DNA from: a virus
Taxonomy: Duplodnaviria; Caudoviricetes
Direction: 5' to 3' (one strand)
IMG/VR virus record: IMGVR_UViG_3300028591_000079
Span: 64,001 to 128,000 of that record
DNA length: 64,000 bases
Below, piece by piece: positions 11,928 through 34,997 of this stretch. The notes under the pieces are model-generated. The model was not told the origin of the DNA, did no database searches, and saw only the letters and a program-made list of their open reading frames with translations. How positions within the stretch are numbered: the first letter of the stretch is position 1; each line of letters opens with the position of its first letter. The position numbers and the translations under genes were made by a program.

Positions 11928-13229
11928 TTAGAACTCCAACCGCATGGTCTTTGCTCTTTTTACACCGACAGGATTTTGAAAGTTATCGTTGCCAGTGATT
12001 CCCCATATTACAGGACAATAATCAAATTTCAAATTATCTATACAGTCATATCCATCAGTCATACAAATAAACACATCATATTTCTTTTTGTTTTCTTTTA
12101 TCCAATCGAAACTAGATGCGATAGTTGTTCCACCAAAGGATGCCAACTTATAGTCTTTGATTTTATCCTGCGTTGGTTTTGTATAATTCACAAGGGTATC
12201 CTCATGAACTTGTGTTGAAAAGCACCAGATGTCAATGTCAAATGATTTAAAACTGTGCATAATCTTTGCTATATGCGCCAAGAATTCATGCACTTGTTCA
12301 TCACCAACCGACCCTGATGTATCAATCGCAATACCTAACTTGATATGCGTATCTGTGCTAGTTCCTGGAAGTATATTACCCATACCCCAACTTCTACGAG
12401 ATGGACGCTTCCAAGAAAAGTCAGATTTGATAAACGCTTTCAGATAGTTAGATAAGAAACCACGCCAATCAAATGGAGGTTCCTGAAACAAGAAGTCAAA
12501 TGCTCGTTCTAAGAAACTATCAACCTTACCTGCATCTTGACCACCCATTTGTTTTTGGACTGCTTGGACTTGGGCTTTGATTCTGCCTGTGTCTGTTTCA
12601 TCCATACTATCTTGCCCGCCATGGTCATCAAACTGTTTTTGTCCTTTCGCTTGTTTTTCTAACCACTTACCAACAGCACCCATCATTTCTTGTTCTACTT
12701 GTTCAGGTGTTTTGCCATCGTGGTCTTTCTTGAAGTCCTCTAACAGTTTTTCATATATCTGCTCACAAGTCATATTTCTATACTTTTCATCATATAAACC
12801 AAATTGCCCTTTCGGATTTTCTGGTTTGATTAACTTGTCGCTATGATACATTTCACCAATCGGTTTAGGCTTACCATATCTATCACTGTTATTTACAAGG
12901 TCTGAATTGATAGAGTAGTCAGTAGCATAATTCCATAACTGAGGATTCCTGCTACCCCGTCTTTCCATAGTCAGATTCAACAAATGCCCTACTTCATGAC
13001 AGATTATAAACAAGATATTATCAACTGACATTTCGTGCATATCCTCGTGTTCTACCATATACTTCCAGTTGAAATAAATACCTTTACCATCTGTCCAGGC
13101 TATTGAATCGTGGTCAGACTCTACAAATTCAACCCCGACCCTTGCAGATATTGCCGCTAAGAAACTATGCTTTATCCACAGTTTTGTATTTACGGCTTCT
13201 TGCATTTCGTCTTTATTTACTGTTATCAT
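11928..13229 (-). CDS. metallopeptidase-like + VWA domain protein (DUF2201 type)
   Basis: AWTDG, HEVGH, WNYATDYSIN, WKRPSRR, MIDAS DTSGS, GGT, TDGY. Confidence 0.9.
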   Translation of the reverse strand: MITVNKDEMQEAVNTKLWIKHSFLAAISARVGVEFVESDHDSIAWTDGKGIYFNWKYMVEHEDMHEMSVDNILFIICHEVGHLLNLTMERRGSRNPQLWNYATDYSINSDLVNNSDRYGKPKPIGEMYHSDKLIKPENPKGQFGLYDEKYRNMTCEQIYEKLLEDFKKDHDGKTPEQVEQEMMGAVGKWLEKQAKGQKQFDDHGGQDSMDETDTGRIKAQVQAVQKQMGGQDAGKVDSFLERAFDFLFQEPPFDWRGFLSNYLKAFIKSDFSWKRPSRRSWGMGNILPGTSTDTHIKLGIAIDTSGSVGDEQVHEFLAHIAKIMHSFKSFDIDIWCFSTQVHEDTLVNYTKPTQDKIKDYKLASFGGTTIASSFDWIKENKKKYDVFICMTDGYDCIDNLKFDYCPVIWGITGNDNFQNPVGVKRAKTMRLEF

Positions 13230-13363
13230 ACTTACCTCCTTTTAGTTTAGGATTACACAAATGACGGCTGCGAGTATCAACAAAATAATCAACATACACA
13301 GCATCATACCATTTACACTATCTTTTACACTATCAGTTATTGGATGCATATTTACCCCCTTTA

Positions 13364-13537
13364 TTATTCTTTATAAAATACATGCATCCAAGATTTTTTA
13401 TAATCACTGCTACATGTAAAGTGTGTATCATCTCTACTACAATGTTCCCTGGCTTCCTCTAAGGTCAAGCCAGTCATTATAGTTGTTTTTCTTTTATTCG
13501 GGTCACCCCATACTTTTACAATTTTATAAGTAGCCAT
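13364..13537 (-). CDS. small phage protein (GLTLEEAxxHC)
   Basis: AAGGAGG RBS before MATYK. Confidence 0.7.
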   Translation of the reverse strand: MATYKIVKVWGDPNKRKTTIMTGLTLEEAREHCSRDDTHFTCSSDYKKSWMHVFYKE

Positions 13538-13551
13538 ATTTACCTCCTTTA

Positions 13552-13914
13552 TCATTCTTGTTCATTATCATCTACACCAACACTTATCATACCATTACCC
13601 AAGTCTTTTACATTCAACTTTTCAGATAATTCCTCAGCCTCCTGTTCTCTCATTTGTTTTTCCATTTCTTTTTCGTGGTATTCTTTCAACAAGTCCGCCA
13701 CATTTTCATCAAACCATTTAGATTCGTGCAGGTGATATTCATAGTTGTCCTCATTGTTTAGTAAGGATTCCATTTTATCACCAACCTCAACTTTACACAA
13801 TAAATCATTAGCCATATTTAAACCTATCTGTTCGTGGTCATCATTCTCTTGCCACACCACCATCAAGGCTTTCATAATTGCTTTGATTTCTTTATCTGTA
13901 AATAGTCTTGCCAT
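13552..13914 (-). CDS. hypothetical protein
   Basis: AAGGAG RBS. Confidence 0.7.
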   Translation of the reverse strand: MARLFTDKEIKAIMKALMVVWQENDDHEQIGLNMANDLLCKVEVGDKMESLLNNEDNYEYHLHESKWFDENVADLLKEYHEKEMEKQMREQEAEELSEKLNVKDLGNGMISVGVDDNEQE

Positions 13915-13973
13915 AACTTACTCCTTTATAAATTGTTGGGCAGTTTTATATCTTACCCAGGATAGTTATGTTA

Positions 13974-15206
13974 TTAGAAGTTAGTTTTAGATGTGCAGAA
14001 TTTTGCGACTGCTTGAATATCTTTATGACTTACATACGACAACAGTTTATTATTCTGTGTGATATGTTTAGTCAAAATCGCTTGCCAATCCGCTCGTTTC
14101 AACTTCTGGCAGGCTTCAAACAGATTATGCACAGCCTCAACCAATGCCTTACCCTCTTTTGATTCTTTATTTGGGCGACCATTTTCATCTTTTTCTGGTT
14201 CGTCCATCTGATTCAAAGTGGCAATACAACCTGTCAATGTTCCGAAAAATCCGTTTATATCACCATCATCACGAAAACCTTTACCTTTGAATAAGATTTC
14301 CGCTGGGTCTTGATATTTTTCAGAGTTTTTCAGATATTCCAACAACATATTTGATACTGCTCCACCAAAATACATACTTGCAAAATGGAACACTTCATCA
14401 TAACTTGCATCCGTATTCATACTATATAACTTGATGAATCGTGACCAAGAACGAGGTGTGCCAAATGTATATGAATTGTTGTTGTAGTTATCAGTATCAA
14501 ACAACTTATCAGGATTACGCTTTACAAACGCAGCCACCATTTGTTTAATCTTTTCTGGTGTGATTCCTGCGATAAAAGGTTTTTCCTGTGCTGGTGTTGT
14601 ATCCAAGCCTAAGACATAATCAAACCACACATCCGCATTGGTTTTTACGAATATATGCCCGAATCTATCTTTGACTGGCGCTTGGATTTCAGTTGAGTAA
14701 GCATTGACCCCTGACTGATTACCTGCCGCAATGATACGATAACCATCTGGCAAGAAGTAATCACCAATTCGTCTTTCTTGAACCAACTGTTGAACAGCAT
14801 TTTGCATAGCCGCAGGTGCATTATTCATTTCATCAAAGTATAACAACCCACGACCATTTGGATTTGTTGGTAAGCATTTAGGAATCGCCCAAGTTGTCTT
14901 AGTCATTTCCTTACCATACTCATTTACTTTTTCAGGCATAGGAATACCAATCAAGTCAGCAGGTTCCATAGATGATAAAGGATAGTAGAAGTATTCAAAC
15001 TCTTTATCCTCTTGTTTCATCTTGCTTACAAACTGTTCTACCGATTGAGTTTTGCCAATACCAGGGTCACCCCAAACAAACAAGTTCAAGTTAGCCCGAT
15101 ACATACAATCAATCAATCTTGGTAATTTGTTTAAGACTATCCCCGAATCCATCAGTTCTTTGATTTCACGAGATACATTTACTTCATTGTTTTGATTTTT
15201 AGCCAT
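13974..15206 (-). CDS. MoxR-like AAA+ ATPase
   Basis: Walker A GDPGIGKT, Walker B YFDEMN, AAGN, DRF, TPRSW; near VWA gene. Confidence 0.9.
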   Translation of the reverse strand: MAKNQNNEVNVSREIKELMDSGIVLNKLPRLIDCMYRANLNLFVWGDPGIGKTQSVEQFVSKMKQEDKEFEYFYYPLSSMEPADLIGIPMPEKVNEYGKEMTKTTWAIPKCLPTNPNGRGLLYFDEMNNAPAAMQNAVQQLVQERRIGDYFLPDGYRIIAAGNQSGVNAYSTEIQAPVKDRFGHIFVKTNADVWFDYVLGLDTTPAQEKPFIAGITPEKIKQMVAAFVKRNPDKLFDTDNYNNNSYTFGTPRSWSRFIKLYSMNTDASYDEVFHFASMYFGGAVSNMLLEYLKNSEKYQDPAEILFKGKGFRDDGDINGFFGTLTGCIATLNQMDEPEKDENGRPNKESKEGKALVEAVHNLFEACQKLKRADWQAILTKHITQNNKLLSYVSHKDIQAVAKFCTSKTNF

Positions 15207-17027: not shown

Positions 17028-17161
17028 ACTAGCGCCGCTCATAGCCCTAGTCTTTTAGTATATACTTGGACTAGCACCGCTTATAGCACCAACCATAGTA
17101 TATACTACCCACTCGCACCGCTAATAGACCATAATAACCCTACTAGCGCCGCAAATAGACC
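17028..17161. repeat. four helically phased direct repeats ACT(A/C)GCRCCGCnnATAG
   Basis: copies at 17028, 17070, 17111, 17142. Confidence 0.75.
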
Positions 17162-17313
17162 TACATACCAAATATTAACCCCATAGACCACTTTACACAT
17201 ACCGCAATAAGACAACTACAACCTAACACATTGAAAAAATAATCTAGTGCCTTGTTGATTGTGTCTATTGGATTTTTCTTGTAGTTTAATCTATCCAAAA
17301 ATTTGTTATACAT
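17161..17313 (-). CDS. 50-aa putative membrane peptide, first gene of the leftward arm (not in ORF track)
   Basis: AAAGGAGTAGAATAAA-ATG; MYNKFLDRL...GLIFGM. Confidence 0.55.
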   Translation of the reverse strand: MYNKFLDRLNYKKNPIDTINKALDYFFNVLGCSCLIAVCVKWSMGLIFGM

Positions 17314-17474
17314 TTTATTCTACTCCTTTCTAAACCAACCCATACTATCTTTCTATCAACGAAAAATAGCAGGCAATAACTAACCGATACAATATAACCT
17401 ATACCAATTCGTTATTATCTGCTATCTACTTGAATCTATATTGGTCTTGGAATCACTCGCCCCTTGACATAACA

Positions 17475-17525
17475 CAATATAACACAATCAAAAACAAAAG
17501 CAAGAAAAATTAAGTATATACTTTT
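17475..17525 (-). promoter_or_regulatory. leftward early promoter 1 with upstream palindrome
   Basis: TTGCTT-16-TATATT with TG extension; 26-bp block duplicated at 17669-17694. Confidence 0.55.
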
Positions 17526-17643
17526 GACTTGCCTTGACTGGAATATAAAAACTTGACAAAAACAAAAACAAGTCAAGCCCCCGCCCCCCTGTCAAGTCGC
17601 AACCGATAAAATAAAACGAATCACCCGCCCGCTTTACATAGTC

Positions 17644-17694
17644 AATTAAAACACAAAACAAAAAAAACGCAAGAAAAATTAAGTATATACTTTT
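17644..17694 (-). promoter_or_regulatory. leftward early promoter 2 with upstream palindrome
   Basis: TTGCGT-16-TTTAAT with TG extension; same 26-bp block. Confidence 0.5.
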
Positions 17695-18158
17695 TAATCG
17701 CCTTTATATTATACTATTAAAGAAAAATTTTAAACTATAATAAACGCAATTTAAACGGGCTTTTAAAGGGCTTGTTTTTTTATAACTTTACACTATACCA
17801 AAAACAAAAAACACGCTTTTAAACGCAAAAAAACACCTATTAAAATAGTATATACTAAAAAAACGCCTTTAAGGGCTTATACTGGAAACCCCCACCAGTT
17901 AACAGTGCAAAAGATGTAGTTAGTCCTTTTGAGTCTCTGAAGTCCTTTTGAGTTCATGCAGTCTTTTGTGGTCTCTGGGGCTGGATCCTTTGAGTCTTTA
18001 TTTGGCCAATTATAGGATTTTTGATTGGTAAGTTGTGGGATTATGTTTTATTGATTTTACTGATTAATTATAGATTTTTCTTTAAGTGGGTGTTATAATT
18101 AATGTTTGAGTTTAGAATTAAAAGCGATATAGTATAACAAACGAGGAGTATAGTCATT

Positions 18159-18419
18159 ATGAGTAGAAGAAAAGAATTTTTATTATGGGGTGTAAAAAAG
18201 TCTAGGAATGGTATATATTGGAGTGATGGGTTAGGATTATCTTTTATTGATGGTGGTTTGATGACGGAATATGATGGTAAGTATGATGGATCAGGGAAAG
18301 ACATTGGTTGTTGCTTAGTAGAGATGGGGTATTGGTTAGGTGGTAGGACAAAGGTTGATATAAATGTAGCTGGTAAAAAGGAGTTATTGTTTTATTTATT
18401 GAAGAAAGCAAAGGTATAG
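18159..18419 (+). CDS. hypothetical protein, C-terminal LL-helix array
   Basis: first ORF of rightward operon; GAGGAG upstream. Confidence 0.65.
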   Translation: MSRRKEFLLWGVKKSRNGIYWSDGLGLSFIDGGLMTEYDGKYDGSGKDIGCCLVEMGYWLGGRTKVDINVAGKKELLFYLLKKAKV

Positions 18420-18422
18420 TAT

Positions 18423-18722
18423 ATGAGAAGGGTATTAGTAAGATATTATGGTTGTGTTTTAGAGGGTGGTAAGAAGAAGTATTTTATTTATAGTAATGAC
18501 GAGAGTAAGACTGGGAGGATTTACATATATGTTGGTGGTTATATTGGAATGGGAGACAATGGGATAAGGTTTGGCAGTGGTTATAGTTATGTATTAGGGG
18601 GAGTGGAGAAAAAAGATGGGTGGTTATATGTTGTTTTATTTGGGAGTGGTAAGGGTGGTAAGTATAGTATAGCCAACATAATAGAGAGTGATAAGTATAA
18701 ATTGACTGCTTTGTTAGGGTAA
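18423..18722 (+). CDS. hypothetical protein, paralogue of 19055-19426
   Basis: RxL(V/I)RY(Y/I)G, DNxxxFG, KxDGW shared. Confidence 0.7.
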   Translation: MRRVLVRYYGCVLEGGKKKYFIYSNDESKTGRIYIYVGGYIGMGDNGIRFGSGYSYVLGGVEKKDGWLYVVLFGSGKGGKYSIANIIESDKYKLTALLG

Positions 18723-18726
18723 TAAG

Positions 18727-19050
18727 ATGAGGGATTATGACACTTTGAATCTTTTTTGGGAATATGATGCGATACAGGACTGGGGTAAAGGCGGTTGTTG
18801 GTATCATTTAATCAAGGGAACAAAGAAGCAAGGTATATGGTATGAATGTGATAGTTGGATATTATGGAAAGACGGGAGAGGATATATAGGTTATTGTTTT
18901 AGAAATGAACATAAAAGGGCCAGCAAAACAAATAGAGTAGTATGTGAGATGAAGAGTGGAATAATTGGTGGATACTTAGTTGATAATGGGGACTTTTGTG
19001 ATGGTGGTTATGGCAAGAAAGAATATATAGATTGGTTGTTGGGGGGATAA
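18727..19050 (+). CDS. hypothetical protein, LL-helix array
   Basis: operon packing. Confidence 0.7.
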   Translation: MRDYDTLNLFWEYDAIQDWGKGGCWYHLIKGTKKQGIWYECDSWILWKDGRGYIGYCFRNEHKRASKTNRVVCEMKSGIIGGYLVDNGDFCDGGYGKKEYIDWLLGG

Positions 19051-19054
19051 TGAG

Positions 19055-19426
19055 ATGATGATGAGGTGTTTGATTAGGTATATTGGGTATTTTGATGATC
19101 ACGACAGGCACAGGCATTATATTTGTAAAAGGATTAATATTTATAGGCATTTATTTGGGTATGGATGTTTAGTTGATAATGATCTTATAAGTTTTGGTGC
19201 TAATGGTGAATGGATATATGATGATTTAATAAGTAACAAGGATTTTGAGCGTGGATGTCCGACAGGGAGAAAGAATGAAATAATTAATAAGGTAGATGGA
19301 TGGGTGTGTGTATGTTATAATATTGAAGATGAGGGCGGCTGCAATGTTTCAACTGGGGAAGTAAGTTATTTTAAGTCTGATATTTTTGACAAAGAAGAGG
19401 ATATTTTAGAATATTTATTGGCTTGA
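19055..19426 (+). CDS. hypothetical protein, LL-helix array
   Basis: operon packing; paralogy with 18423-18722. Confidence 0.7.
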   Translation: MMMRCLIRYIGYFDDHDRHRHYICKRINIYRHLFGYGCLVDNDLISFGANGEWIYDDLISNKDFERGCPTGRKNEIINKVDGWVCVCYNIEDEGGCNVSTGEVSYFKSDIFDKEEDILEYLLA

Positions 19427-19450
19427 AGAAGTAATTAAATATGGTAAAAT
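19423..19450 (+). promoter_or_regulatory. sigma70-type promoter with TAATTAAA spacer box
   Basis: TTGAAG-16-TAAAAT; same architecture at 21803, 25090, 26113, 30122. Confidence 0.55.
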
Positions 19451-19456
19451 AGTAAT

Positions 19457-20194
19457 ATGGTGATAAATGAAGAAAAACATATTGTAAAGCATAATGAAGA
19501 CTTAGGATGGCTATTTGGTTTACCTGAGGGTGTTTTGTATGTATATTATGGTGGTTTGATATTTTTGAATTACGGTTGGTTTCACGAGATGGATAATTGT
19601 GGCAGGCCTGTAATAAACAACATGACGATTAGTGAAGTTGTAAGATTAATAAAAAGTGATACGGGATTAGTAGAGAGGATAGAATGTTTGAGTAAGGGCG
19701 TTATAAGAGACTATTATGACGCAAATGAGATGTTATCAAAGCACAAGAAATTATTAAGCAAGTACGGAATAAAAGAATTAGAGCCTGTTGTTGATGGACA
19801 TTCTTTTGTTATTAAGTTGTGGTTTGAAGATTTTGAAAACGACAGTATGTTTAGGTTTTATTTTAGGACCAGTGGGAGTTATATGGATGGAAGGGTATTA
19901 TTAAAGCTTTTGGGTAGGATAGTTGACAAAGGTGAAGACGGGGTAAAAGAATACAATAAGTGGTTAGAATTTGCACGGTTATTGAAGAAATTTGATATTG
20001 AGATTGGGTGGTTTAATTATTTTAGGTTAGAAGGTGATAATATAGTATTTAAGGGAAAAGACTGGAGATTGGATTGGTGTACTGATTTTGAAAAGAAGCT
20101 GATAAGTATATGTGAGAAGGATAAGGGTAATAATTATAGGATGAGGTGTGGTAGTATTGAAGAATTTGATGCATTATTGGAGTTATTAACGTGA
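19457..20194 (+). CDS. hypothetical protein, LL-helix array (long class)
   Basis: ends GSIEEFDALLELLT. Confidence 0.75.
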   Translation: MVINEEKHIVKHNEDLGWLFGLPEGVLYVYYGGLIFLNYGWFHEMDNCGRPVINNMTISEVVRLIKSDTGLVERIECLSKGVIRDYYDANEMLSKHKKLLSKYGIKELEPVVDGHSFVIKLWFEDFENDSMFRFYFRTSGSYMDGRVLLKLLGRIVDKGEDGVKEYNKWLEFARLLKKFDIEIGWFNYFRLEGDNIVFKGKDWRLDWCTDFEKKLISICEKDKGNNYRMRCGSIEEFDALLELLT

Positions 20195-20541
20195 TATATA
20201 AAAACACTGGAGCTGTTGTAGATTTTAGCAGTGGTTATCCTGAGACTGTTGGGAGACATTGGATTTATTGTAACAGGAATGAAAGAAGGATAACTGAATT
20301 CAAGAACCTATATAGTTCAAATGGGATAAATTGGTATGCTATTGGTTTTGAGAGTTGTGTTTCTGAGGATGTTGGAGAAAATGATGCAATAGAAAAGTGT
20401 AGTTTATGGGAATTATTTAAATGTAAGAAGGTTTTTGATGATGCTGGATTTGTAAGTTTTTGTCATGGTTTTGAGAACATATTTGACATTTTGGATAACA
20501 TAGAAGATAAAAGTGCGATATTGGAAGGGTTATTGAGATGA
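20191..20541 (+). CDS. hypothetical protein, LL-helix array
   Basis: 4-nt overlap; ends AILEGLLR. Confidence 0.7.
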   Translation: MIYKNTGAVVDFSSGYPETVGRHWIYCNRNERRITEFKNLYSSNGINWYAIGFESCVSEDVGENDAIEKCSLWELFKCKKVFDDAGFVSFCHGFENIFDILDNIEDKSAILEGLLR

Positions 20542-21236
20542 ATTGGGAAAAAATTGTAAAATATATTGAATCAGGGTATTATAAGAAAGATTTGAAGGCA
20601 GCCAAGGAAATTAGCGGATGGCTGGATGTAAGTTATAGGTTTGATTTATGCTCTGGGTGTATTATAGTTGGCGAAAATAATAGAGTTGATATTTTTGATA
20701 CGATGTTTAGGGTTGAAAATTATAAAATAGAACAAATAGAAAAACTGAAAGAGGTTATAGAAGGTTGGGATGATGTAATAAAAGAAATAAAGATTATAAT
20801 GGGGAACCAAGAATATCAAAAACTAATTGAGAAAAAAAGAGGGCATATAGAATTTAATAGGTATGCTAGTGATGGGCGAACTTTAGATTATATAGAATTG
20901 AAATGGGATAAGTCTTTGGTTGATTATATGTTGGGTTTGGATATTATTGGTAATGATTCTATAATTGAGCAGACGGAGGCTATAAACAATATTGATGATG
21001 AATTATATGCAGTTGGGGCGGTTTTTTGTAATCATTTGAAATCAGTGCTCTTTAGTAGATATTTTATATTAAAGAAAGACCCTGGAACTGGCAAATATTG
21101 TATAAAGTTTGAGTATAGCGATAAATTAAAATTGGAGAGTGTAGATCAAAAGCTTAGTATGTTGTTTGGTAATAGGAATAAGTTGTATGTAAAAAATGCA
21201 GAAGAGTTAGATGTTTTGATGGGGTTGATAGAATAA
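20538..21236 (+). CDS. hypothetical protein, LL-helix array (long class)
   Basis: ends NAEELDVLMGLIE. Confidence 0.75.
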   Translation: MNWEKIVKYIESGYYKKDLKAAKEISGWLDVSYRFDLCSGCIIVGENNRVDIFDTMFRVENYKIEQIEKLKEVIEGWDDVIKEIKIIMGNQEYQKLIEKKRGHIEFNRYASDGRTLDYIELKWDKSLVDYMLGLDIIGNDSIIEQTEAINNIDDELYAVGAVFCNHLKSVLFSRYFILKKDPGTGKYCIKFEYSDKLKLESVDQKLSMLFGNRNKLYVKNAEELDVLMGLIE

Positions 21237-21545
21237 ATGTTAGAGCGTATACCATTTATTTTTAAAATACTAGAAGCCTATAAGGATGAAACCTATGGGA
21301 ATTATTGGCTAAGGGTAAAATTGACTTTAGACGGATCAGAGCACGTAATGAGTTTGACAGAAGAAGATAAGCGTGTAATATTTTTTCAGAGCACAACCAC
21401 AGAATCCTCTCAAGAAGTGTTAGAAAAAGCAAGAAAAGACTTTAGAAAATTGGAAAAATTGAGAACCAGAAAGAATGATTTTACAATAGAAAGCACAGGT
21501 AAGGCAAAAAAAATCATAAAGGTATTAGAGGAGTTGTTGGTATGA
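21237..21545 (+). CDS. hypothetical protein, LL-helix array
   Basis: ends KVLEELLV. Confidence 0.7.
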   Translation: MLERIPFIFKILEAYKDETYGNYWLRVKLTLDGSEHVMSLTEEDKRVIFFQSTTTESSQEVLEKARKDFRKLEKLRTRKNDFTIESTGKAKKIIKVLEELLV

Positions 21546-21814
21546 TAATTTTTATAAGAGATGTTTTAGATATAGAGTTTGATAGTGAATTAAATGTTGT
21601 TTGGTATGTTATAAGAAATATCCATCAAACCCAAGTCACAGAATATATTAAAGTTTCATACAGCAGCAATCATCCTTTATTATATTGTCCACTTTCTATG
21701 GATTATAACCCCCCAGCAAAATCGTTATCTAAAAAAGTTATTATTGTATTAGATGGTGAAAATGGATATATTGAAGATTTTTATATGTGGCTGGAAAAAA
21801 TCTTGTCAAACTAA
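21542..21814 (+). CDS. hypothetical protein, LL-helix array
   Basis: ends WLEKILSN. Confidence 0.7.
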   Translation: MIIFIRDVLDIEFDSELNVVWYVIRNIHQTQVTEYIKVSYSSNHPLLYCPLSMDYNPPAKSLSKKVIIVLDGENGYIEDFYMWLEKILSN

Positions 21815-21853
21815 TTAAAAGATGTTATTATAATTTGGAAATGGAGAGTAAAT

Positions 21854-22714
21854 ATGGAAATAAAAGATAAAATTTTAGAAATATTGATTTTTATGACTTT
21901 TGGAAATGATCCTAAGTATTTGTTTTCTGTTTCAAATATTGAAGATAATGCTAAAAGTTGTTATATTGGTATTTCTAATGTTTTATGGTATAATTCAGAT
22001 GTTTGGGGTAATGCTAATGGTAAGTTTATAGAAAATGGCAGACTTTCTTATAAAGATGAATATGAACAATTTTGTAAAGACTGGGTAGAAAGTTTTTTGA
22101 GCGATATAAGAGTTCGTTTGTTTTATCCTAATTCTGTATATAAATATTCTAGTGTGTATGATTATTTGAGAAAGTTACACAATAAATATGTTGCAAGCAT
22201 TGATTTAAATGCAAAATTTGAAAGAGAATTTCCAGAATTATATAGCCTTTGTAATTTTGTTTTTGATGTTTGTGGTAATGTTGGAGAAGAAACTGTTGGT
22301 GTTTTTAATGTTGGAAGAGAAAGTCCATTGTATTTATTAGATGATTATGAGTGGCTTGAACACGAAAAAATAATCAAAATAGATGAAAATGGTTGTGTTG
22401 ATCTTGGAAGCTTTTATCAGTTTATACAAAGACTAGAAGATAATAAAGATAAAATTCAATTAGCAAAATTATTTAATGATTATGCAGGAGAAAACGTAAC
22501 ATGTAGTAAAAGAATCGTAAAGCTTGATGGTGGCGTATATGAGTTTTCTTTTTTGAGTTGGGATCTGTGGAAAAATAAAGAAATAGAATGGCTAGAACAG
22601 ATAGGAGAAATAAAAAAAGAGCCTGGGTATTTTACTTCGTTTACTAATTTGGTTATAACTGGAACATATGAAGAAATTGAAACTATGTTGGAACTTGTAA
22701 AAGGTGGAAAATAA
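21854..22714 (+). CDS. hypothetical protein, LL-helix array (long class)
   Basis: ends GTYEEIETMLELVKGGK. Confidence 0.75.
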   Translation: MEIKDKILEILIFMTFGNDPKYLFSVSNIEDNAKSCYIGISNVLWYNSDVWGNANGKFIENGRLSYKDEYEQFCKDWVESFLSDIRVRLFYPNSVYKYSSVYDYLRKLHNKYVASIDLNAKFEREFPELYSLCNFVFDVCGNVGEETVGVFNVGRESPLYLLDDYEWLEHEKIIKIDENGCVDLGSFYQFIQRLEDNKDKIQLAKLFNDYAGENVTCSKRIVKLDGGVYEFSFLSWDLWKNKEIEWLEQIGEIKKEPGYFTSFTNLVITGTYEEIETMLELVKGGK

Positions 22715-22716
22715 AG

Positions 22717-23418
22717 ATGATGTTTATAAATGTTCTCGTTTTTGTTGTAACTTTTGGTGTTTGTTTTTATATTGCAAAAAGAGATAAAAGAAATAGAAAC
22801 ATAAAAGCAACTTCGGCAAAAATCATGGCAGTAATAGTGGACATGGCTTACCACGGAGACGAATTTGCAAGTTGTTTAAGTATAGATGATCTTATTATTG
22901 ATCTAAAAGTAAAGGCTAGATATGACTTTTTAGATTATTTTGAATGGGATAAAAAATTGACAATTGACAGCGAAGATTCCAGTGCGTTTTGGAAAAAGTA
23001 TGAAGAAGAAAAAAGAAGGTTCAAATCAGATAGAAGATATAAAATATACAAACTCTTTCTAAAAAATCTAACCCGTCATGGGAAAATTATTGTTTTAGAT
23101 GATGGTAGTGTTTATTTGGTTGTTTATAAATACTATTATAATCCTGGTGGAGTGGTGTTGAATTATACATCTTGGCCTAATTCAGCTACTTGTATTGCTT
23201 TAGGCGGCGGTGGAGGAGGAGGCGGTTTTTATTATTTAAATGCGCCAGATTTGAAAAGGAATGACAAATTGAAATGTGAAGGGTTTGAAAAAATAAGACA
23301 AATATGGCACAATACAATAGAAGAAAGAACACACACAATATTTATAATCAAAGAAAACGAGATAGATGATTTTTATAGTATGTGTGAGCTAATATGTGGA
23401 GAAGAACTATCATGGTAA
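22717..23418 (+). CDS. membrane-anchored hypothetical protein with poly-Gly tract
   Basis: N-terminal hydrophobic helix; ends DDFYSMCELICGEELSW. Confidence 0.7.
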   Translation: MMFINVLVFVVTFGVCFYIAKRDKRNRNIKATSAKIMAVIVDMAYHGDEFASCLSIDDLIIDLKVKARYDFLDYFEWDKKLTIDSEDSSAFWKKYEEEKRRFKSDRRYKIYKLFLKNLTRHGKIIVLDDGSVYLVVYKYYYNPGGVVLNYTSWPNSATCIALGGGGGGGGFYYLNAPDLKRNDKLKCEGFEKIRQIWHNTIEERTHTIFIIKENEIDDFYSMCELICGEELSW

Positions 23419-23933
23419 TAAAAGAGCAAAATAAAAAAAGTAAAGTATGGTTTGTGGTGGCATGTGAAGAAGAATTTTATATGCCAGATGTTAATATTGT
23501 TTATACTGGAGTTGGTAAGGTAAGAGCTACAATGGCTACACAACACATTATAGACAAATATCAACCAGAAAAAATTATAAATATTGGGACTGCTGGTTGT
23601 ATTAGTGAGTCTTTATGCTTCAATGTTTTTCGTATTGGTAAGATTGTTGAAAGAGATTATGATACAAAAGATGGTAAAATCAATGAAATAGTCTTGGATG
23701 GCAATGTTGTTTTGGGCACCGGAGATAGCTTTGTGGAAGATTGGACTGGTTTGAATTTTTCTTTAGTAGATATGGAAGGGTATGCTGTTGGTTATGTATG
23801 TAAAGAAAATAATATAAAGTTCGAATGTTATAAATATGCAAGTGATACGGGAAATATGGAAAGTTGGGAAAAAAGTTTAGAAGGATGCAATAAAACATTT
23901 GTGGATCTAATTAAAAGCAGTAAAATAGGATAA
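23412..23933 (+). CDS. mtnN: MTA/SAH nucleosidase-like (PNP/UDP family)
   Basis: TGVGKVRA, INIGTAG, GTGDSFV, VDMEGYA, KYASD motifs. Confidence 0.85.
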   Translation: MVIKEQNKKSKVWFVVACEEEFYMPDVNIVYTGVGKVRATMATQHIIDKYQPEKIINIGTAGCISESLCFNVFRIGKIVERDYDTKDGKINEIVLDGNVVLGTGDSFVEDWTGLNFSLVDMEGYAVGYVCKENNIKFECYKYASDTGNMESWEKSLEGCNKTFVDLIKSSKIG

Positions 23934-24731
23934 ATGAAAAAAGCTATAAATATTTTTGATCTAATAGAAGAAGTAAACAAGGACTTGGGAGAGGACTTGT
24001 TGTTTGCTGTTGTACCAGAAAATGATATTAGTGTTTATGTTATGGTTGCAGATAAAAAAATTGGTAAACAACAAAAACTAATAATAAGCTCAAAATATGA
24101 TATGTTTACCAAAAAAGATGATATACTACGCGCTAAAAAAAGAATTGTAAGTGTTTTGATTCCTTTTGGTTTTATATCTTTAGCAAATCCATATGAACAA
24201 TTTCTATCAAAGGCAAAACAACAAGTGAGTAAAATTAGAAACTTCTCAAAAACAAAAGATTATTTAGAATCCAGATATGGCATAGAATTTGGTCATTATG
24301 CTTGTATGGGAAATTCTTTAGATTGTTTTGTTGTTTTTCCAAAATTAGAGTGTAGAATGAATCCAATGTTTAAGTTTACCATGTATTATAGTCTTTTATT
24401 TGATGGTGATAAGATAAGCGAAAAAAGTTTGAAATCTTATTGTAGAAAAATGGATAAAGTAATAACGAGAATGAAATGTTTGTCTGCGGCTTTTGATAAT
24501 TGTGAGTTGATGTGGAATGGTAAAAACTTTTATAAACACTGTACAATAAAAAGAAGTGGTTTTGGAGATTGGATTATAAAGTTTCCGTATATTGATAAGT
24601 ATTTTGCTGCTCAAGGCATCAATGATATAAAAAAACTGATAAAAATATATCACTATAAAGACACAGACTATTGTATATGGAGAGGATCAACACCAGAAGA
24701 ATTTACTACAATGAGGGAATTACTGAAATGA
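23934..24731 (+). CDS. hypothetical protein, LL-helix array (long class)
   Basis: ends GSTPEEFTTMRELLK. Confidence 0.75.
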   Translation: MKKAINIFDLIEEVNKDLGEDLLFAVVPENDISVYVMVADKKIGKQQKLIISSKYDMFTKKDDILRAKKRIVSVLIPFGFISLANPYEQFLSKAKQQVSKIRNFSKTKDYLESRYGIEFGHYACMGNSLDCFVVFPKLECRMNPMFKFTMYYSLLFDGDKISEKSLKSYCRKMDKVITRMKCLSAAFDNCELMWNGKNFYKHCTIKRSGFGDWIIKFPYIDKYFAAQGINDIKKLIKIYHYKDTDYCIWRGSTPEEFTTMRELLK

Positions 24732-25105
24732 AAACTAAAGAACCTAAATTTGATACAGGTAAAGAGTTGATGGAGTGGAGAAGATCTTATGTCAAAAACT
24801 GGCTCAAAGAACACCATCCGGCCCTTACTTGCACCTACAGAAAAACAAAATTCGGTGGTGAAGACCTGTGGATATGTTTAAACTCTTATTTGAGTGATGA
24901 TGAAATAATGTTTGGAATTCAGTGTCCAGAGTATGCCAAAGACTCAAAAAGCATCATAGGCAATACAATAATTATGGGCGGTGTGAACTCTTTTACAGCT
25001 CCAGTTATGTGTGAAAGAATTGAGAAGCGCATAAAAAAATACGGTAATTATAATGCTTTATGTTTTTTGGATTCAGTTGTAAAAAGATCTGGCAAATATT
25101 ATTAA
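24728..25105 (+). CDS. hypothetical protein (start MKTKE)
   Basis: ATGA overlap with upstream stop. Confidence 0.65.
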   Translation: MKTKEPKFDTGKELMEWRRSYVKNWLKEHHPALTCTYRKTKFGGEDLWICLNSYLSDDEIMFGIQCPEYAKDSKSIIGNTIIMGGVNSFTAPVMCERIEKRIKKYGNYNALCFLDSVVKRSGKYY

Positions 25106-30172: not shown

Positions 30173-31450
30173 ATGAAACAATATAAATTCAAAAATGGCT
30201 TAGTATTATTATATGAAAAGAATAAATACAATAATTTAGACTCTTTTCAAGTAAATGTTGGTACCGGATCATTATTAGAAGGAGAAGGTGAATATGGGAT
30301 TAATCATCTTATAGAACATCTTATTTTTAAATCCACAAAAAAACGTACAACACAACAGATTTCAACAGAATTAGAAATAACTGGAGCCAATATAAACGCA
30401 TGGACAAGTTATAGTAATGTTCGTTTTTATTTTGATGTATTACCGAAGCATTTAGAAAAGTGTGCAGAAATTTATGCTGATATGTTGTTCAATAAAGACA
30501 TAAAATTATCAGAATTCAAAATGGAACGTGATGTGGTATGTCAAGAAATTGCAATGTACGAAGATCATCCGGCGGTAATAAATGAAGAAAATTGGTGGAA
30601 TAAGTTTTATAACTGGAAACCTGTAGCTGGAACGATTGAAAGCGTGAAAACAATAACTCTTGGAAAAGCAAACAGATATATCGAAAAATATTATAACCCT
30701 CAAAATATGGTAATTTCTGTTTGTTCTAGATTGTCATTTCTTACCATAAAAAAGATTGTTGCAAAATATTATGGCTGTATTGAAAATCGTGAAGAAGCAA
30801 TTACAACCAAAGAAGCCTGGAATTTTATGTCTTATCAAGGACGCAGATCTTTTATTAAGAGCGATGTATTCAAAAAAGAAGTATATAAAAAGAAAAAGAA
30901 AACATCACAGGTTCAGATTGCTTATGGATATGATATGAAAGACTTTAATATTGAAGAAATAGAATTTTTGAACAATATTTTGTCTGATGGCCTATCCAGT
31001 ATCTTATATCGCGAAATTAGAGAAAAATATGGTTTGTGTTATGGATTTCATATTGATACAGATCCATATTATAACAAACAGGTAATGGAAGATCAGTGCC
31101 TTGTTTCTATGATAAAAGCAAGCACAGAATCTCAAAATGTGGACAAGTTTTGTAAAATATTTGAAGGCGTAATGTCTGATATAAAATCTGGTGAATTAAT
31201 ATTAGATAGTGATATTGAAAGGGTAAAAAATATTTATGAATCAAAAGAAATAAAAGCAGAAGATGTTGCCTCATATAATCACTATAGATACAATTCAATA
31301 TGTTGCGATTATCCAAGTCTTGAAAAAATGAAAAAAAGAATTTTGAAACGTAGCAACAGAGAAATAAGAGAATTGATTAATTATATGTTGGAGAATTCGA
31401 ATTTTAATGTCAGCATGCTTGGAAATATTGATACCAAAAAGATTAAATGA
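30173..31450 (+). CDS. M16 (insulinase/pitrilysin) family peptidase
   Basis: HLIEH, INAWTS, ERDVVCQEI, SSILYREIREKYGLCY. Confidence 0.92.
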   Translation: MKQYKFKNGLVLLYEKNKYNNLDSFQVNVGTGSLLEGEGEYGINHLIEHLIFKSTKKRTTQQISTELEITGANINAWTSYSNVRFYFDVLPKHLEKCAEIYADMLFNKDIKLSEFKMERDVVCQEIAMYEDHPAVINEENWWNKFYNWKPVAGTIESVKTITLGKANRYIEKYYNPQNMVISVCSRLSFLTIKKIVAKYYGCIENREEAITTKEAWNFMSYQGRRSFIKSDVFKKEVYKKKKKTSQVQIAYGYDMKDFNIEEIEFLNNILSDGLSSILYREIREKYGLCYGFHIDTDPYYNKQVMEDQCLVSMIKASTESQNVDKFCKIFEGVMSDIKSGELILDSDIERVKNIYESKEIKAEDVASYNHYRYNSICCDYPSLEKMKKRILKRSNREIRELINYMLENSNFNVSMLGNIDTKKIK

Positions 31451-31529: not shown

Positions 31530-33824
31530 ATGAAAAACCAACTCAAAAAATTTAGTTTTAGTATTGTTTTACACACGCTTAAGGAAATAGAAGATTTGTT
31601 TGCTGGTAATTGGAATTCTCTGAAAGTTGAAACAGAAGAAAGACCAATAAGGGCGCAAGATGATGACAACAGCATAGAAGAAAGAATAAAAGATTTTGAA
31701 CTTATGCAGCTTATTAAATACAAAAAAAATGCATATTTAGAACCATACAAAAAAAGAAATAAAAGTATGGAACATTACTCCCGTTGGTTGCTGAATTTTA
31801 TGGATATTTCTAATTTTGCGTATTTTTTGGCCTCTAATTGTCATAAGTTAAATATTGAGAGTATTTATAATTTTGAATGTAAAATAAATTCATTAGAGGA
31901 AACAAAAGTTTTTCTGAAAGAGTGGAATGATTCTAATGGGAATTTGCCTGCAGAAAGTATAATACAATTTTTCAAAAAAAAGATTGTGCGGGAGATGATT
32001 GAAAATTATTATACAAAATTTATCGATTCAATGCAGCAAAAAATTGATAAACTAAATCCAAACAAAAAAGAATATTATACTCAAAATCTTGATATTTATC
32101 TTGATTTGTTTGGTGTAAAAGATGAAAAAGAAAAAGATGTAATTAGATTTTTGGTATATAAAAATATCAAATGTTTTTCTTATGGTGCATCTGGTGGCAA
32201 TACACGTAAAGCTGTCATGTTGCATGTTGGAATTACAGAAAAAGAATATAAAAAAATAATGTCATCGAACTTTTGTAGCATATGGTTTTGCAAGGGTAAA
32301 AATGATAAAATTTTATATAACAGTGATATGTTAGAGCCTATTTTCAACATAGAATCTGGAAAAGAATGTTTTTTAAATAGTGTTATCAAAAAAACTGAAA
32401 AATCAAAACTTTCATTGGATGATTTTGGACATGTAAAGCAAAAAGACTATATTCTCAGTGTTTTACAAAACGCATTAAGAAAGCAAAAAAAGGGAATTAA
32501 TATTTTATTATATGGCAAACCTGGAACTGGAAAAACAGAATTGTCCAAAACACTAATTGATGCCTGTGGTGCTGAAGGTTATAATGTTCAAGGTATAGAA
32601 GATCCATCATGTCCAATGAGATATTTAGAAGGAAAAGAAGATGTAAAAAGAAGAAAATATATGTATTACATGCTTCAAACGTATTTAAAAAACAACAACA
32701 ATGCAATAATTTTATATGATGAAGCCGAGGACTTTTTCCGTAAAGAAGAAAAAGATGGTCAATCCAAACAAAAGATTAATGATTATTTGGAAAATAACAC
32801 AACTCCTGTAATTTGGACATGCAATTCTTTGTGGGATATTGAACAGAGCTTTTTGAGACGTTTTTCATATATTTTAGAATTGGACACTATTGGTTCTAGT
32901 GTTTTATCTTCTTTGGTTGAAAAAATGTGTCAAGAAAAAGGAATAAAACTTGACGAAAGAGTAAAACGCCTAATTGAACAAGAACAACCATCAATAGGAA
33001 TAATAAAACAATGTCTAAACACATATAAATTATCAAACATAAAAAAACAAGATCTATTATATGAAGCATTGAAAAACTCTATATATGCCGAATCTTATAA
33101 TACAAAAAAACCAAAAGATATAAATAGAAGTCAGATGCATGGATATAATCAAAATCTGGCAAATACTGACATAAAACTTGAATCAATCACCAATGGCATA
33201 ATCAAGTCTGGTAAAAATGATTGGTCTTTGATTTTATATGGCGTAAGTGGAACAGGGAAAACCGCCTATGCTGAATTTCTTGGTAAAAAGTTGGGGATGC
33301 GTGTTATAAAGAAAAAAGTAAGTGATCTTCAAAGTATGTGGGCCGGTGAGTGTGAAAAAAATATTGACAAGGCTTTTGAAGAGGCGAGACAAAACAACGC
33401 AATATTGCTATTTGATGAAGGTGATTGTTGGTTGAGAGATAGAAGACTTAATCGAGCATCTTGGGAAACCAGTCAAACAAATCAGTTCTTGCAAAATTTA
33501 GAAGCAGCAACCACACCAGTAATAGTAACAACAAATCTTATGGACTCTTTGGATCAAGCCGCATTAAGACGTTTTGTTTTCAAGGTTGGATTCAGATATA
33601 TGACAAAAGCACAAGTAAAAGAGGCGTTCAAAACTTTTTATAATATTGATGTAACAGAAAATGAAGCAAATATATCTTATGCAACCCCGGGAGATTTTGC
33701 TGTAATACAAAAGCAAATAGAATACTTGGGAGAAAAACCTACGGCTGGTAAAATAAAAGAATTGCTGTTGGGGGAAATAAAAAATAAAAAGGATGACTTC
33801 AAAGAAAACAGTATAAAAATATAA
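31530..33824 (+). CDS. double AAA+ ATPase
   Basis: GKPGTGKT/YDEAE/LRRF and GVSGTGKT/FDEGD/LRRF. Confidence 0.9.
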   Translation: MKNQLKKFSFSIVLHTLKEIEDLFAGNWNSLKVETEERPIRAQDDDNSIEERIKDFELMQLIKYKKNAYLEPYKKRNKSMEHYSRWLLNFMDISNFAYFLASNCHKLNIESIYNFECKINSLEETKVFLKEWNDSNGNLPAESIIQFFKKKIVREMIENYYTKFIDSMQQKIDKLNPNKKEYYTQNLDIYLDLFGVKDEKEKDVIRFLVYKNIKCFSYGASGGNTRKAVMLHVGITEKEYKKIMSSNFCSIWFCKGKNDKILYNSDMLEPIFNIESGKECFLNSVIKKTEKSKLSLDDFGHVKQKDYILSVLQNALRKQKKGINILLYGKPGTGKTELSKTLIDACGAEGYNVQGIEDPSCPMRYLEGKEDVKRRKYMYYMLQTYLKNNNNAIILYDEAEDFFRKEEKDGQSKQKINDYLENNTTPVIWTCNSLWDIEQSFLRRFSYILELDTIGSSVLSSLVEKMCQEKGIKLDERVKRLIEQEQPSIGIIKQCLNTYKLSNIKKQDLLYEALKNSIYAESYNTKKPKDINRSQMHGYNQNLANTDIKLESITNGIIKSGKNDWSLILYGVSGTGKTAYAEFLGKKLGMRVIKKKVSDLQSMWAGECEKNIDKAFEEARQNNAILLFDEGDCWLRDRRLNRASWETSQTNQFLQNLEAATTPVIVTTNLMDSLDQAALRRFVFKVGFRYMTKAQVKEAFKTFYNIDVTENEANISYATPGDFAVIQKQIEYLGEKPTAGKIKELLLGEIKNKKDDFKENSIKI

Positions 33825-33851: not shown

Positions 33852-34997
33852 TTAAAATAAATGCAATGTTTTTTTTGGTTTTTTCAACTCTTTTCCATAC
33901 AATGATTCAAATTGTTTCCAAACTTTTTCAAACCATTGTGTGTAGATATGAACTTCGGTTTTTGCGGTTCCTCGTTTACCAAAGTTTTCCATTGTCAATC
34001 TATACCATTGATGATCTGCTTCTGAATATTGTTCGTTGAAATTCCAATCTTTGATTTTAGAAAGATAATCAACACGCAAATTGCGGATATAAGTCGCAAA
34101 TGCAAAAATCAAATTTCCAGTTGTTATTTCATCTAATCCATATTCATCTTGTAATCTCGCGGCTAACAAATATGAACCATAAACCATTGGCATTTGTGGC
34201 ATCAAAACGTTTTTTATATCCTTAAATGCAAAAATAATGGATTTAATGCGTTTTGTTATCAAATTTTTCATCGCCACAGGTACTGTTTTGTTTGTATAAT
34301 CTTTAACCATGTTATATAACGCATTATCATCAATAATATCAGCGTTTTTATCATAGGCGATTGCATCCAAAACATGTTCCAAATACATCCATCTTGTCAA
34401 CAATGTTTCTTGTTTTGTATAATCAGCGGTTTTGCTAAATGCCCGAATTTTACCAATGTTGGTTTTATCGTAAATTTCTTTGATTGTTTCAATTGCAGAA
34501 CCACCTAAAGCATGACGCATTTCTTCTGTTTTGATGCGTTTTCCGTTTTGTAATGCAATGAAAATATCAATTGCAGCAGAATCATTTGTGTTGAACAAAT
34601 AACGAACTGTAATATTTGTTTCTAAAATTTCACGTTGTTGCTCTTTGGACAGATTTCTAAAATAAATCAATTGCCCATTGCCGGGATTGTAAGCAAATTT
34701 GTTTTGAATAAAATTGTAAATTGTTAAAGACCGTTGTTTTCCATCCAAAACTTCAAATTTGTCACCATTACTACGCAAATAAAATAATGGCAACGGAACG
34801 CCTTTCAATAAGGATGTAATTAGTTCATGCTTATTTTTTGCTGGCCAATTATATCCACGTTGATAAACAGGATCCGTGTCCCATTTGTTGTTTTCAATGT
34901 TTTTTACTAATTTTGATATTGTTACAATTTCCATTGATGTAGAAATATCTAATTTTTCAATGGTTGTAATATTTTTTACTTCTGCTGATTTTGGCAT
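33852..34997 (-). CDS. DUF262 (GmrS/ParB-like) domain protein
   Basis: PVYQRGYNW, LITSLLKGVPLP, VLDGKQR, IFIALQNG. Confidence 0.88.
   Translation of the reverse strand: MPKSAEVKNITTIEKLDISTSMEIVTISKLVKNIENNKWDTDPVYQRGYNWPAKNKHELITSLLKGVPLPLFYLRSNGDKFEVLDGKQRSLTIYNFIQNKFAYNPGNGQLIYFRNLSKEQQREILETNITVRYLFNTNDSAAIDIFIALQNGKRIKTEEMRHALGGSAIETIKEIYDKTNIGKIRAFSKTADYTKQETLLTRWMYLEHVLDAIAYDKNADIIDDNALYNMVKDYTNKTVPVAMKNLITKRIKSIIFAFKDIKNVLMPQMPMVYGSYLLAARLQDEYGLDEITTGNLIFAFATYIRNLRVDYLSKIKDWNFNEQYSEADHQWYRLTMENFGKRGTAKTEVHIYTQWFEKVWKQFESLYGKELKKPKKTLHLF

Follow-up and report, generated by a model that had tools for sequence, protein, structure and literature searches.

The window analysed here is a 64,000-nucleotide stretch of phage DNA and covers bases 64001-128000 of one virus record, 231,064 bp long and about 96% complete. 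Thirteen tightly packed plus-strand genes, g1 to g13, fill positions 18159-24731 of the window, and 12 of their products end in a short, leucine-rich and acidic tail at the carboxyl terminus. This tail, which is the subject of the present analysis, occurs in a small and a long class of proteins. A preliminary description of this DNA had quoted 12 such C termini, and all 12 were found in plus-strand open reading frames (ORFs) of this interval, the skipped gene being g12 (23394-23933). The genes of the array and the first gene past it are as follows, in window coordinates:

18159-18419, plus strand: g1, 86 residues, small class, tail ...KKELLFYLLKKAKV
18423-18722, plus strand: g2, 99 residues, small class, tail ...KYKLTALLG
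18727-19050, plus strand: g3, 107 residues, small class, tail ...KEYIDWLLGG
19055-19426, plus strand: g4, 123 residues, small class, tail ...EEDILEYLLA
19457-20194, plus strand: g5, 245 residues, long class, tail ...CGSIEEFDALLELLT
20191-20541, plus strand: g6, 116 residues, small class, tail ...KSAILEGLLR
20538-21236, plus strand: g7, 232 residues, long class, tail ...VKNAEELDVLMGLIE
21237-21545, plus strand: g8, 102 residues, small class, tail ...KIIKVLEELLV
21542-21814, plus strand: g9, 90 residues, small class, tail ...EDFYMWLEKILSN
21854-22714, plus strand: g10, 286 residues, long class, tail ...ITGTYEEIETMLELVKGGK
22717-23418, plus strand: g11, 233 residues, long class, tail ...EIDDFYSMCELICGEELSW
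23394-23933, plus strand: g12, 179 residues (or 173 from the ATG at 23412), an enzyme of the PNP/UDP-phosphorylase family (Pfam PF01048, 1.9e-15)
23934-24731, plus strand: g13, 265 residues, long class, tail ...RGSTPEEFTTMRELLK
24728-25105, plus strand: first gene past the array, 125 residues, motif absent (...VVKRSGKYY); its ATG overlaps the g13 stop codon (ATGA)

The g12 enzyme lies inside the array without the tail motif and ends in ...TFVDLIKSSKIG, showing that array position and tight packing alone do not confer a tail. Profile searches of g1-g11 and g13 against Pfam and PHROG gave no match with an E value below 0.005 and none near a curated cut-off. The same searches with 37 further proteins, from relatives and from the second array described below, returned one match only, to an HNH endonuclease.

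Genes were called genome-wide by a simple longest-ORF rule, and enrichment was assessed with a regular expression defined on this array, [LMI]xx[LI][LIV], sought in the 13 C-terminal residues. This pattern matches 12 of the 13 genes here, 13 of 24 in a second array (genome 50.9-60.3 kb, minus strand, outside the window) and 22 of the 283 genes in the rest of the 231-kb genome, with Fisher p values against the rest of 9e-12 for this array and 6e-8 for the second. Enrichment over shuffled and other C termini is thereby confirmed, as residue shuffles give on average 0.8 matches among 13 genes and 1.7 among 24; internal 13-residue windows of the array proteins match in 2-5% of cases. Within the window, five genes outside the array match, which is the background rate and agrees with the earlier remark that the motif is not evident in the left arm or beyond 25.5 kb. 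The motif is nevertheless not limited to this array, since about 20 more tails occur at genome 50.9-60.3 kb on the minus strand. They include KIIEELLK, GILEKLLS, KILEELLK and EMIEELLK, and among the long forms GTYEELDNMVKLVKKG, bringing the total over both arrays to about 35 proteins. A weight matrix trained on the second array only separates the C termini of this array from those of the rest of the genome with an area under the curve (AUC) of 0.87 (p=4e-6), and the reverse test, with training on this array and scoring of the second, gives an AUC of 0.81 (p=1e-7).

These numbers bear on the simplest alternative, namely that composition and chance produce the tails because C-poor coding enriches leucine, glutamate, lysine and isoleucine, and helical protein ends are common. 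C does make up only 3-7% of the coding strand of the array genes, a composition in favour of TTA/TTG, GAA/GAG and AAA codons. The shuffles, the internal windows and the cross-array weight matrices rule this explanation out, and the probability left to it is negligible.

The anatomy of the tail was derived from 36 families anchored on the leucine pair (LL). Information content is elevated only at positions -4 to +2, which read in order phi (a hydrophobic residue, isoleucine in 13 families), L, I or M (22, 8 and 6), E (20), any residue, L (31), L (30) and K/R/E. The chain stops one residue past LL in 27 of the 36 families, and about 70% of families end in K, R or E (at position +2, K12, E5 and R5 of 35). 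The location of LL, mostly one residue from the chain end, fits a recognised end. Upstream of the tail, position -8 is a turn or cap, and the stretch from -14 to -9 is hydrophobic and strand-like. The small class (about 30 families of 55-130 residues) carries the seven-residue signature phi-[LIM]-E-x-L-L-x-COOH, whereas the long class (five proteins of 232-286 residues) ends in strand-[GN][ST]xEE-phi-xx-phi-xx-L-phi. The single motif that had been proposed consists in fact of two related patterns, that of the long and that of the small proteins.

Orthologs retain the tail. A metagenome scan recovered four related loci, L003-L006, of which two, situated on one 52-kb contig, carry counterparts of both arrays; word-index searches added further orthologs on contigs of 142-243 kb. 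Tails are kept across these sets, and body identity varies from 23% to 97% between neighbouring genes. The g2 orthologs of L003 and L004 keep KLTALLG, and those of g3, g7 and g11 end in EYVNWLLE, ELETIMRLVQ and DFYSMCELISGEELIC, respectively. ST(P/A)EEFExMRELhK is kept in 17 g13 homologs, and the g8 orthologs retain the ending EVIEELLV despite an overall identity of just 25-29%. Four genes, g1, g4, g6 and g9, have no counterpart in L003 or L004, where other tail-bearing families occupy their places. The retention of tails, together with uneven body identity and the replacement of families, is the pattern of a fast-turning-over accessory set. The g10 family has 10 representatives among 1.84 billion cluster representatives, and these are all of similar length except for a 2,642-residue protein, whose match is marginal (E 2.6e-5). 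Searches of phage DNA and proteins with the array returned no match, scans of IMG/VR found no g10 relatives, and ESM Atlas searches with g8 and g10 gave no usable match.

Many of these genes overlap or nearly abut, and the last codons of one gene often also serve the start of the next. One explanation of the tail is a by-product of translational coupling, in which these codons are kept for the Shine-Dalgarno sequence, A/T-rich spacer and overlapping start of the downstream gene. Tail codons do carry many upstream start regions, such as TTGGAGTTATTAAC-GTG, GAGGAGTTGTTGGT-ATG and GGAAGGGTTATTGAG-ATG, and LL lies exactly 8 nucleotides ahead of the next start in about 10 tails. Tails in general show a slight, non-significant enrichment of GAG and AAA codons. 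However, LL can lie anywhere between 3 and 74 nucleotides from the next start. In this array LL is upstream of the ribosome-binding site (RBS) in at least five genes and within the spacer in five. In g3 it precedes the G-rich RBS of the next gene, in g11 the helix precedes an RBS that occupies the GEE codons, and in g6 LL falls in the spacer between the RBS and the overlapping ATGA start. The hydrophobic positions -3 and -4 fall outside the RBS. Nine tails of the two arrays have no overlapping downstream start yet retain phi-L-[ED]-x-L-L-x. The tail of g4 is not overlapped by an RBS because the next start lies 30 nucleotides past its stop, and that of g9 is likewise free because the distance is 39 nucleotides.

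Substitution patterns point the same way. At identical residues in 19 ortholog pairs, the fraction of synonymous differences is 0.30 in tails and 0.27 in bodies, and the usage of leucine, glutamate, lysine and isoleucine codons is the same in both. Array genes with the same kind of junction also exist without a tail, such as g12, the HNH endonuclease gene and a gene ending in EEKLNATK with an ATGA overlap. Because LL-to-start distances vary, non-overlapped tails persist, synonymous change and codon usage match those of the bodies, and same-junction genes are tailless, the constraint acts on the peptide. The coupling explanation is thus largely refuted and is regarded as very unlikely; RBS overlap, which the preliminary description had named as a finding that could undo its proposal, does not explain the tail. 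The tail is supported as a selected protein feature, neither a chance occurrence nor an RBS by-product. A DNA-level junction cassette was also considered and ruled out, since codon usage and synonymous divergence are alike in tails and bodies.

The bodies in front of the tails had been described as mostly unrelated, which stands for the small class, where no relation is detectable, and fails for the five long members. BLAST among the bodies connects only g10 with a 286-residue gene at genome 57181-58041 (27% identity, 5e-23) and one small pair; g2 and g4 show weak similarity (BLAST E 0.003). Comparison of hidden Markov models (HMMs) aligns g10 with the g13 family (17 members) over 220 collinear columns (E 5.7e-4; reversed control 0.34); a second alignment, to the g5 family, spans the last 79 columns (E 6.6e-4; reversed control 0.11). 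The g5 family and a 242-residue gene of the second array (genome 58372-59100) match reciprocally over about 160 residues at E values of 2e-3 to 5e-3, and g5 and this paralog still align once the tails are removed (E 4e-3). The links of g7 to the g10 family (51 columns, E 0.03) and of g11 to the long class are marginal. From their sequences, the five long proteins are best read as distant paralogs sharing a C-terminal domain. The strand-(G)(S/T/N)xEE-helix ending that had been noted in all five is indeed common to them, and the g10/g13 and g10/g5 alignments identify it as the last strand and helix of this shared domain. The g11 product also begins with a hydrophobic segment and then a basic cluster, and contains eight consecutive glycines in its interior (GGGGGGGG).

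The 30 small families, once their last 14 residues are removed, give HMM scores no higher than those of reversed sequences (p 0.09), and no alignment to the long-class domain was found. Some of them align across the last 30-40 residues only. The small families may nevertheless share a common descent that has diverged past detection.

Two proteins, g8 and g10, were modelled with AlphaFold2. The g10 model, built from 14 sequences with a predicted local distance difference test (pLDDT) score of 87.5, consists of three alpha/beta parts and ends with a strand (residues 263-271) and a helix (272-283), the mean pLDDT being 95 for residues 271-280. Residues 270-281 are also the most conserved 12-residue window of the g10 family. 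Comparison of the whole-chain g10 model with the Protein Data Bank (PDB) gave weak scores only (Foldseek best E 0.064, VIA-align best Z 4.8), the best VIA-align scores being to phage tail-terminator-like and other alpha/beta sandwiches. As to the KH or secretin-N resemblance suggested earlier for the long endings, no such chain appears among the PDB matches listed for this model.

The g8 model (13 sequences, pLDDT 80.9) shows a four-strand meander (residues 7-52), a helix (56-68) and a C-terminal part of lower confidence, in which the tail helix occupies residues 91-101. Its PDB comparisons by Foldseek and VIA-align are also weak. The best two, IraM (8twd_B, with 57 residues aligned at Z 5.9) and PmrD (Z 4.8), cover the meander and helix core at residues 4-68 only, lie within the range of a common arrangement at 4-7% identity and leave the tail helix outside the match, and are no evidence of kinship. 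As modelled, g8 and g10 have different folds.

Three features of the tail speak for a role of the helix beyond folding, namely its fixed place at the carboxyl end, its occurrence behind bodies of differing size and fold, and its absence from the embedded enzymes. The tail is conserved by selection, so that it probably makes a shared contact. It is proposed tentatively, with slightly less than an even chance of being correct, that the conserved terminal helix is the common contact surface of a clade-specific multigene set. This set occupies two loci in an uncultured 231-kb phage, the array being one of them, and probably grew via tandem duplication, rapid divergence and gene turnover. Its members are orphan, extremely C-poor genes, presumably promoter-proximal and expressed early. 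Selection has kept an amphipathic helix of 10-12 residues that follows a beta-strand and terminates the protein, and this shared helix would let many diversified bodies engage one partner, or each other, like adaptors with one plug.

The helix might instead be a structural remnant. The proteins would then descend from one or two ancestral folds, with the terminal helix as the folding core and the last part to diverge, independently acting bodies and no shared partner. In favour of this, the genes are similar in size and arranged in tandem, and several paralog links among them are real, if weak. The alignment of some small families over their last 30-40 residues, a strand-cap-helix architecture that is consistent across families, and a g10 helix that is contiguous with its strand at a pLDDT of about 95 agree with it as well. 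Against it stand the differing folds of the g8 and g10 models and the small bodies, which score among themselves no better than the reversed control and do not align with the long-class domain. Furthermore, a folding core does not need a stop exactly one residue past LL, as found in 75% of families, and the tail region of g8 is the least confident part of its model, outside the core that matches known folds. A remnant is considered doubtful, although it deserves serious weight.

Several observations also weigh directly against a common contact surface. No flexible linker precedes the tail in any of the 36 families, and in g10 the helix, joined without a gap to its strand, is the most confident part of the model. 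Both findings fit a helix packing on its own domain. Profile comparison gives no match between small tails and long ones, which may thus be two separate things. Tails of orthologs are barely more conserved than the bodies (identity 0.63 versus 0.58). Finally, about 10 tails double as the RBS, spacer and start of the next gene, E-E-L-L-K-stop being GAGGAG TTA TTA AAA TGA, and this double use may contribute to the retention of the tail.

This phage encodes several proteins that handle other proteins:

window 30173-31450, downstream of the array: M16 peptidase
window 31530-33824, downstream of the array: Cdc48/p97-like double-AAA ATPase
window 11928-15206, opposite strand, upstream of the array: MoxR-type AAA_5 ATPase and its DUF2201 metallopeptidase/VWA partner
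genome 172019-172615 (minus strand), 196924-197607 (plus strand) and 198020-199984 (plus strand), outside the window: ClpP-family and chaperonin-like genes

The M16, double-AAA and MoxR/VWA genes are an unusually rich proteostasis set for a phage. One ClpP is genuine (Pfam 235 bits). A second, weaker ClpP-family protein is perhaps a prohead protease, and a neighbouring pair of 102 and 545 residues looks like GroES/GroEL, judged from size and N-terminal sequence alone.

Given these genes, the tail could act as a degron or handling tag by which a protease or unfoldase removes the proteins at a set time, or to which they are tethered as adaptors of such a machine. Candidate receivers are the phage ClpP, the Cdc48-like double-AAA ATPase, the M16 peptidase, or host ClpX or FtsH. 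A carboxyl-anchored motif with non-polar residues near the end would suit such a role, as would the phage ClpP and the location of the double-AAA protein and M16 peptidase about 6 kb downstream of the array, both being present in the relative L004. Degrons of the ClpX C-motif-1/ssrA type carry non-polar residues at the last three positions and a free carboxylate (LAA-like). Most of the tails differ from these LAA-type ends, which ClpX recognises, in that their last residue is charged (K, R or E). Profile searches of the phage genome for possible tail receptors found no PDZ domain, no ClpX zinc finger (zf-C4_ClpX) and no ClpA/X-type AAA_2 domain.

The adaptor SspB provides a precedent for tethering, in that the N domain of ClpX is bound by a short C-terminal segment attached to a variable body (PMC9963277). 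The tailed proteins likewise combine variable bodies with a short C-terminal segment in a phage that has its own ClpP, a likeness that goes no further than analogy. The SspB segment follows a long disordered region, whereas the tails have no such flexible linker; the sequence patterns differ, and the phage has no ClpX match. A degron or handling tag is therefore rated as decidedly improbable.

A broader form of the contact-surface proposal, improbable too, is that the tail is a portable C-terminal address that would plug at least 35 diversified early proteins of a jumbo phage into one hub, the arrays constituting a library of degradation adaptors or timed degrons. The hub that reads this address could be the phage Cdc48-like AAA ATPase, ClpP or M16 peptidase, or a host AAA+ protease. 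The arrangement calls to mind the poxvirus ankyrin proteins, which are tandem, fast-turnover paralogs with a variable part thought to pick the target and a C-terminal PRANC/F-box-like module that plugs into one machine. By analogy, the arrays would be what the F-box/PRANC strategy is in large eukaryotic viruses, but in a virus of bacteria. In the present proteins the module has 7-12 residues and is not a domain, the host is bacterial, and no homology is claimed.

Among phages, the closest described precedent appears to be that of T4, where the hydrophobic-acidic C termini of gp43, gp55 and gp33 dock to the sliding clamp gp45 and the segments are interchangeable (PMC2988020). The T4 clamp-binding set comprises three proteins, compared with about 35 here, and its epitope sits on a divergent flexible linker, whereas the helix of the present proteins directly follows a strand. 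No match to a sliding clamp of the T4 gp45 type (PF02916) or the beta type (PF00712) was detected in the 231-kb genome; a divergent clamp or a host clamp might receive the tails. A search of the literature on a shared C-terminal motif among phage early proteins found nothing relevant.

Large phages owe most of their unexplained coding capacity to orphan early genes, which are usually studied singly. Here, about 35 orphan genes carry one conserved seven-residue handle at the carboxyl end. If this handle binds a common partner, one pull-down with a tail peptide could reveal the hub and give functional context to both arrays. The tail could also be used to search other uncultured phages for comparable gene sets. 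If it is a structural remnant only, the arrays would be a clean case of paralogs that diverged past sequence recognition with one element kept.

The array is preceded by a region with features of its own:

window 17050-18158, no strand assigned: non-coding stretch and strand switch of about 1.1 kb, directly upstream of the array, described from a reading of its sequence

The sign of the GC skew flips in this region. A 10-bp palindrome, AGTATATACT, is present in five copies within window 17057-17857, at 17057, 17097, 17513, 17682 and 17847, and nowhere else in the genome; two of the five copies are embedded in a longer repeat, AAGAAAAATTAAGTATATACTTTT. These copies are candidates for an operator, a promoter or origin iterons just upstream of the array. 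Judged from position alone, the array would open the rightward transcript.

The GC skew of the coding strand is extreme in both arrays (at window 18159-21236 and at genome 56.0-60.6 kb), reaching 0.8 against a genome mean of 0.20. The skewed genes contain 3-7% C and 24-35% G, and 13 of the 15 most skewed genes of the genome lie in the two arrays. The skew declines along each array from its upstream end; in this array g1 has a skew of 0.80 and a C content of 3.4%. The skew may stem from mutation bias, from R-loop-prone DNA close to an origin, or from C-free early mRNAs that form little secondary structure or escape C-dependent RNases. At genome 22539-23664, outside the window, two genes of 136 and 236 residues have an equally extreme GC skew and tail-like ends, EKEMREILDMVI and GSLEEFDITCGFLCN. 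They have no profile link to the long families, and from their composition and ends they may form a third small locus of the set.

The HNH endonuclease match comes from one protein of the second array (several PHROGs, and Pfam HNH_3 at 1.5e-6). Its most likely source is a pair of neighbouring genes without tails, of 129 and 145 residues, within that array (L007; genome 54204-55020, minus strand). The HNH gene looks like a homing-endonuclease insertion. In the window, a minus-strand gene at 33852-34997 encodes a protein with the N-terminal domain of GmrSD restriction endonucleases (Pfam 5e-18).

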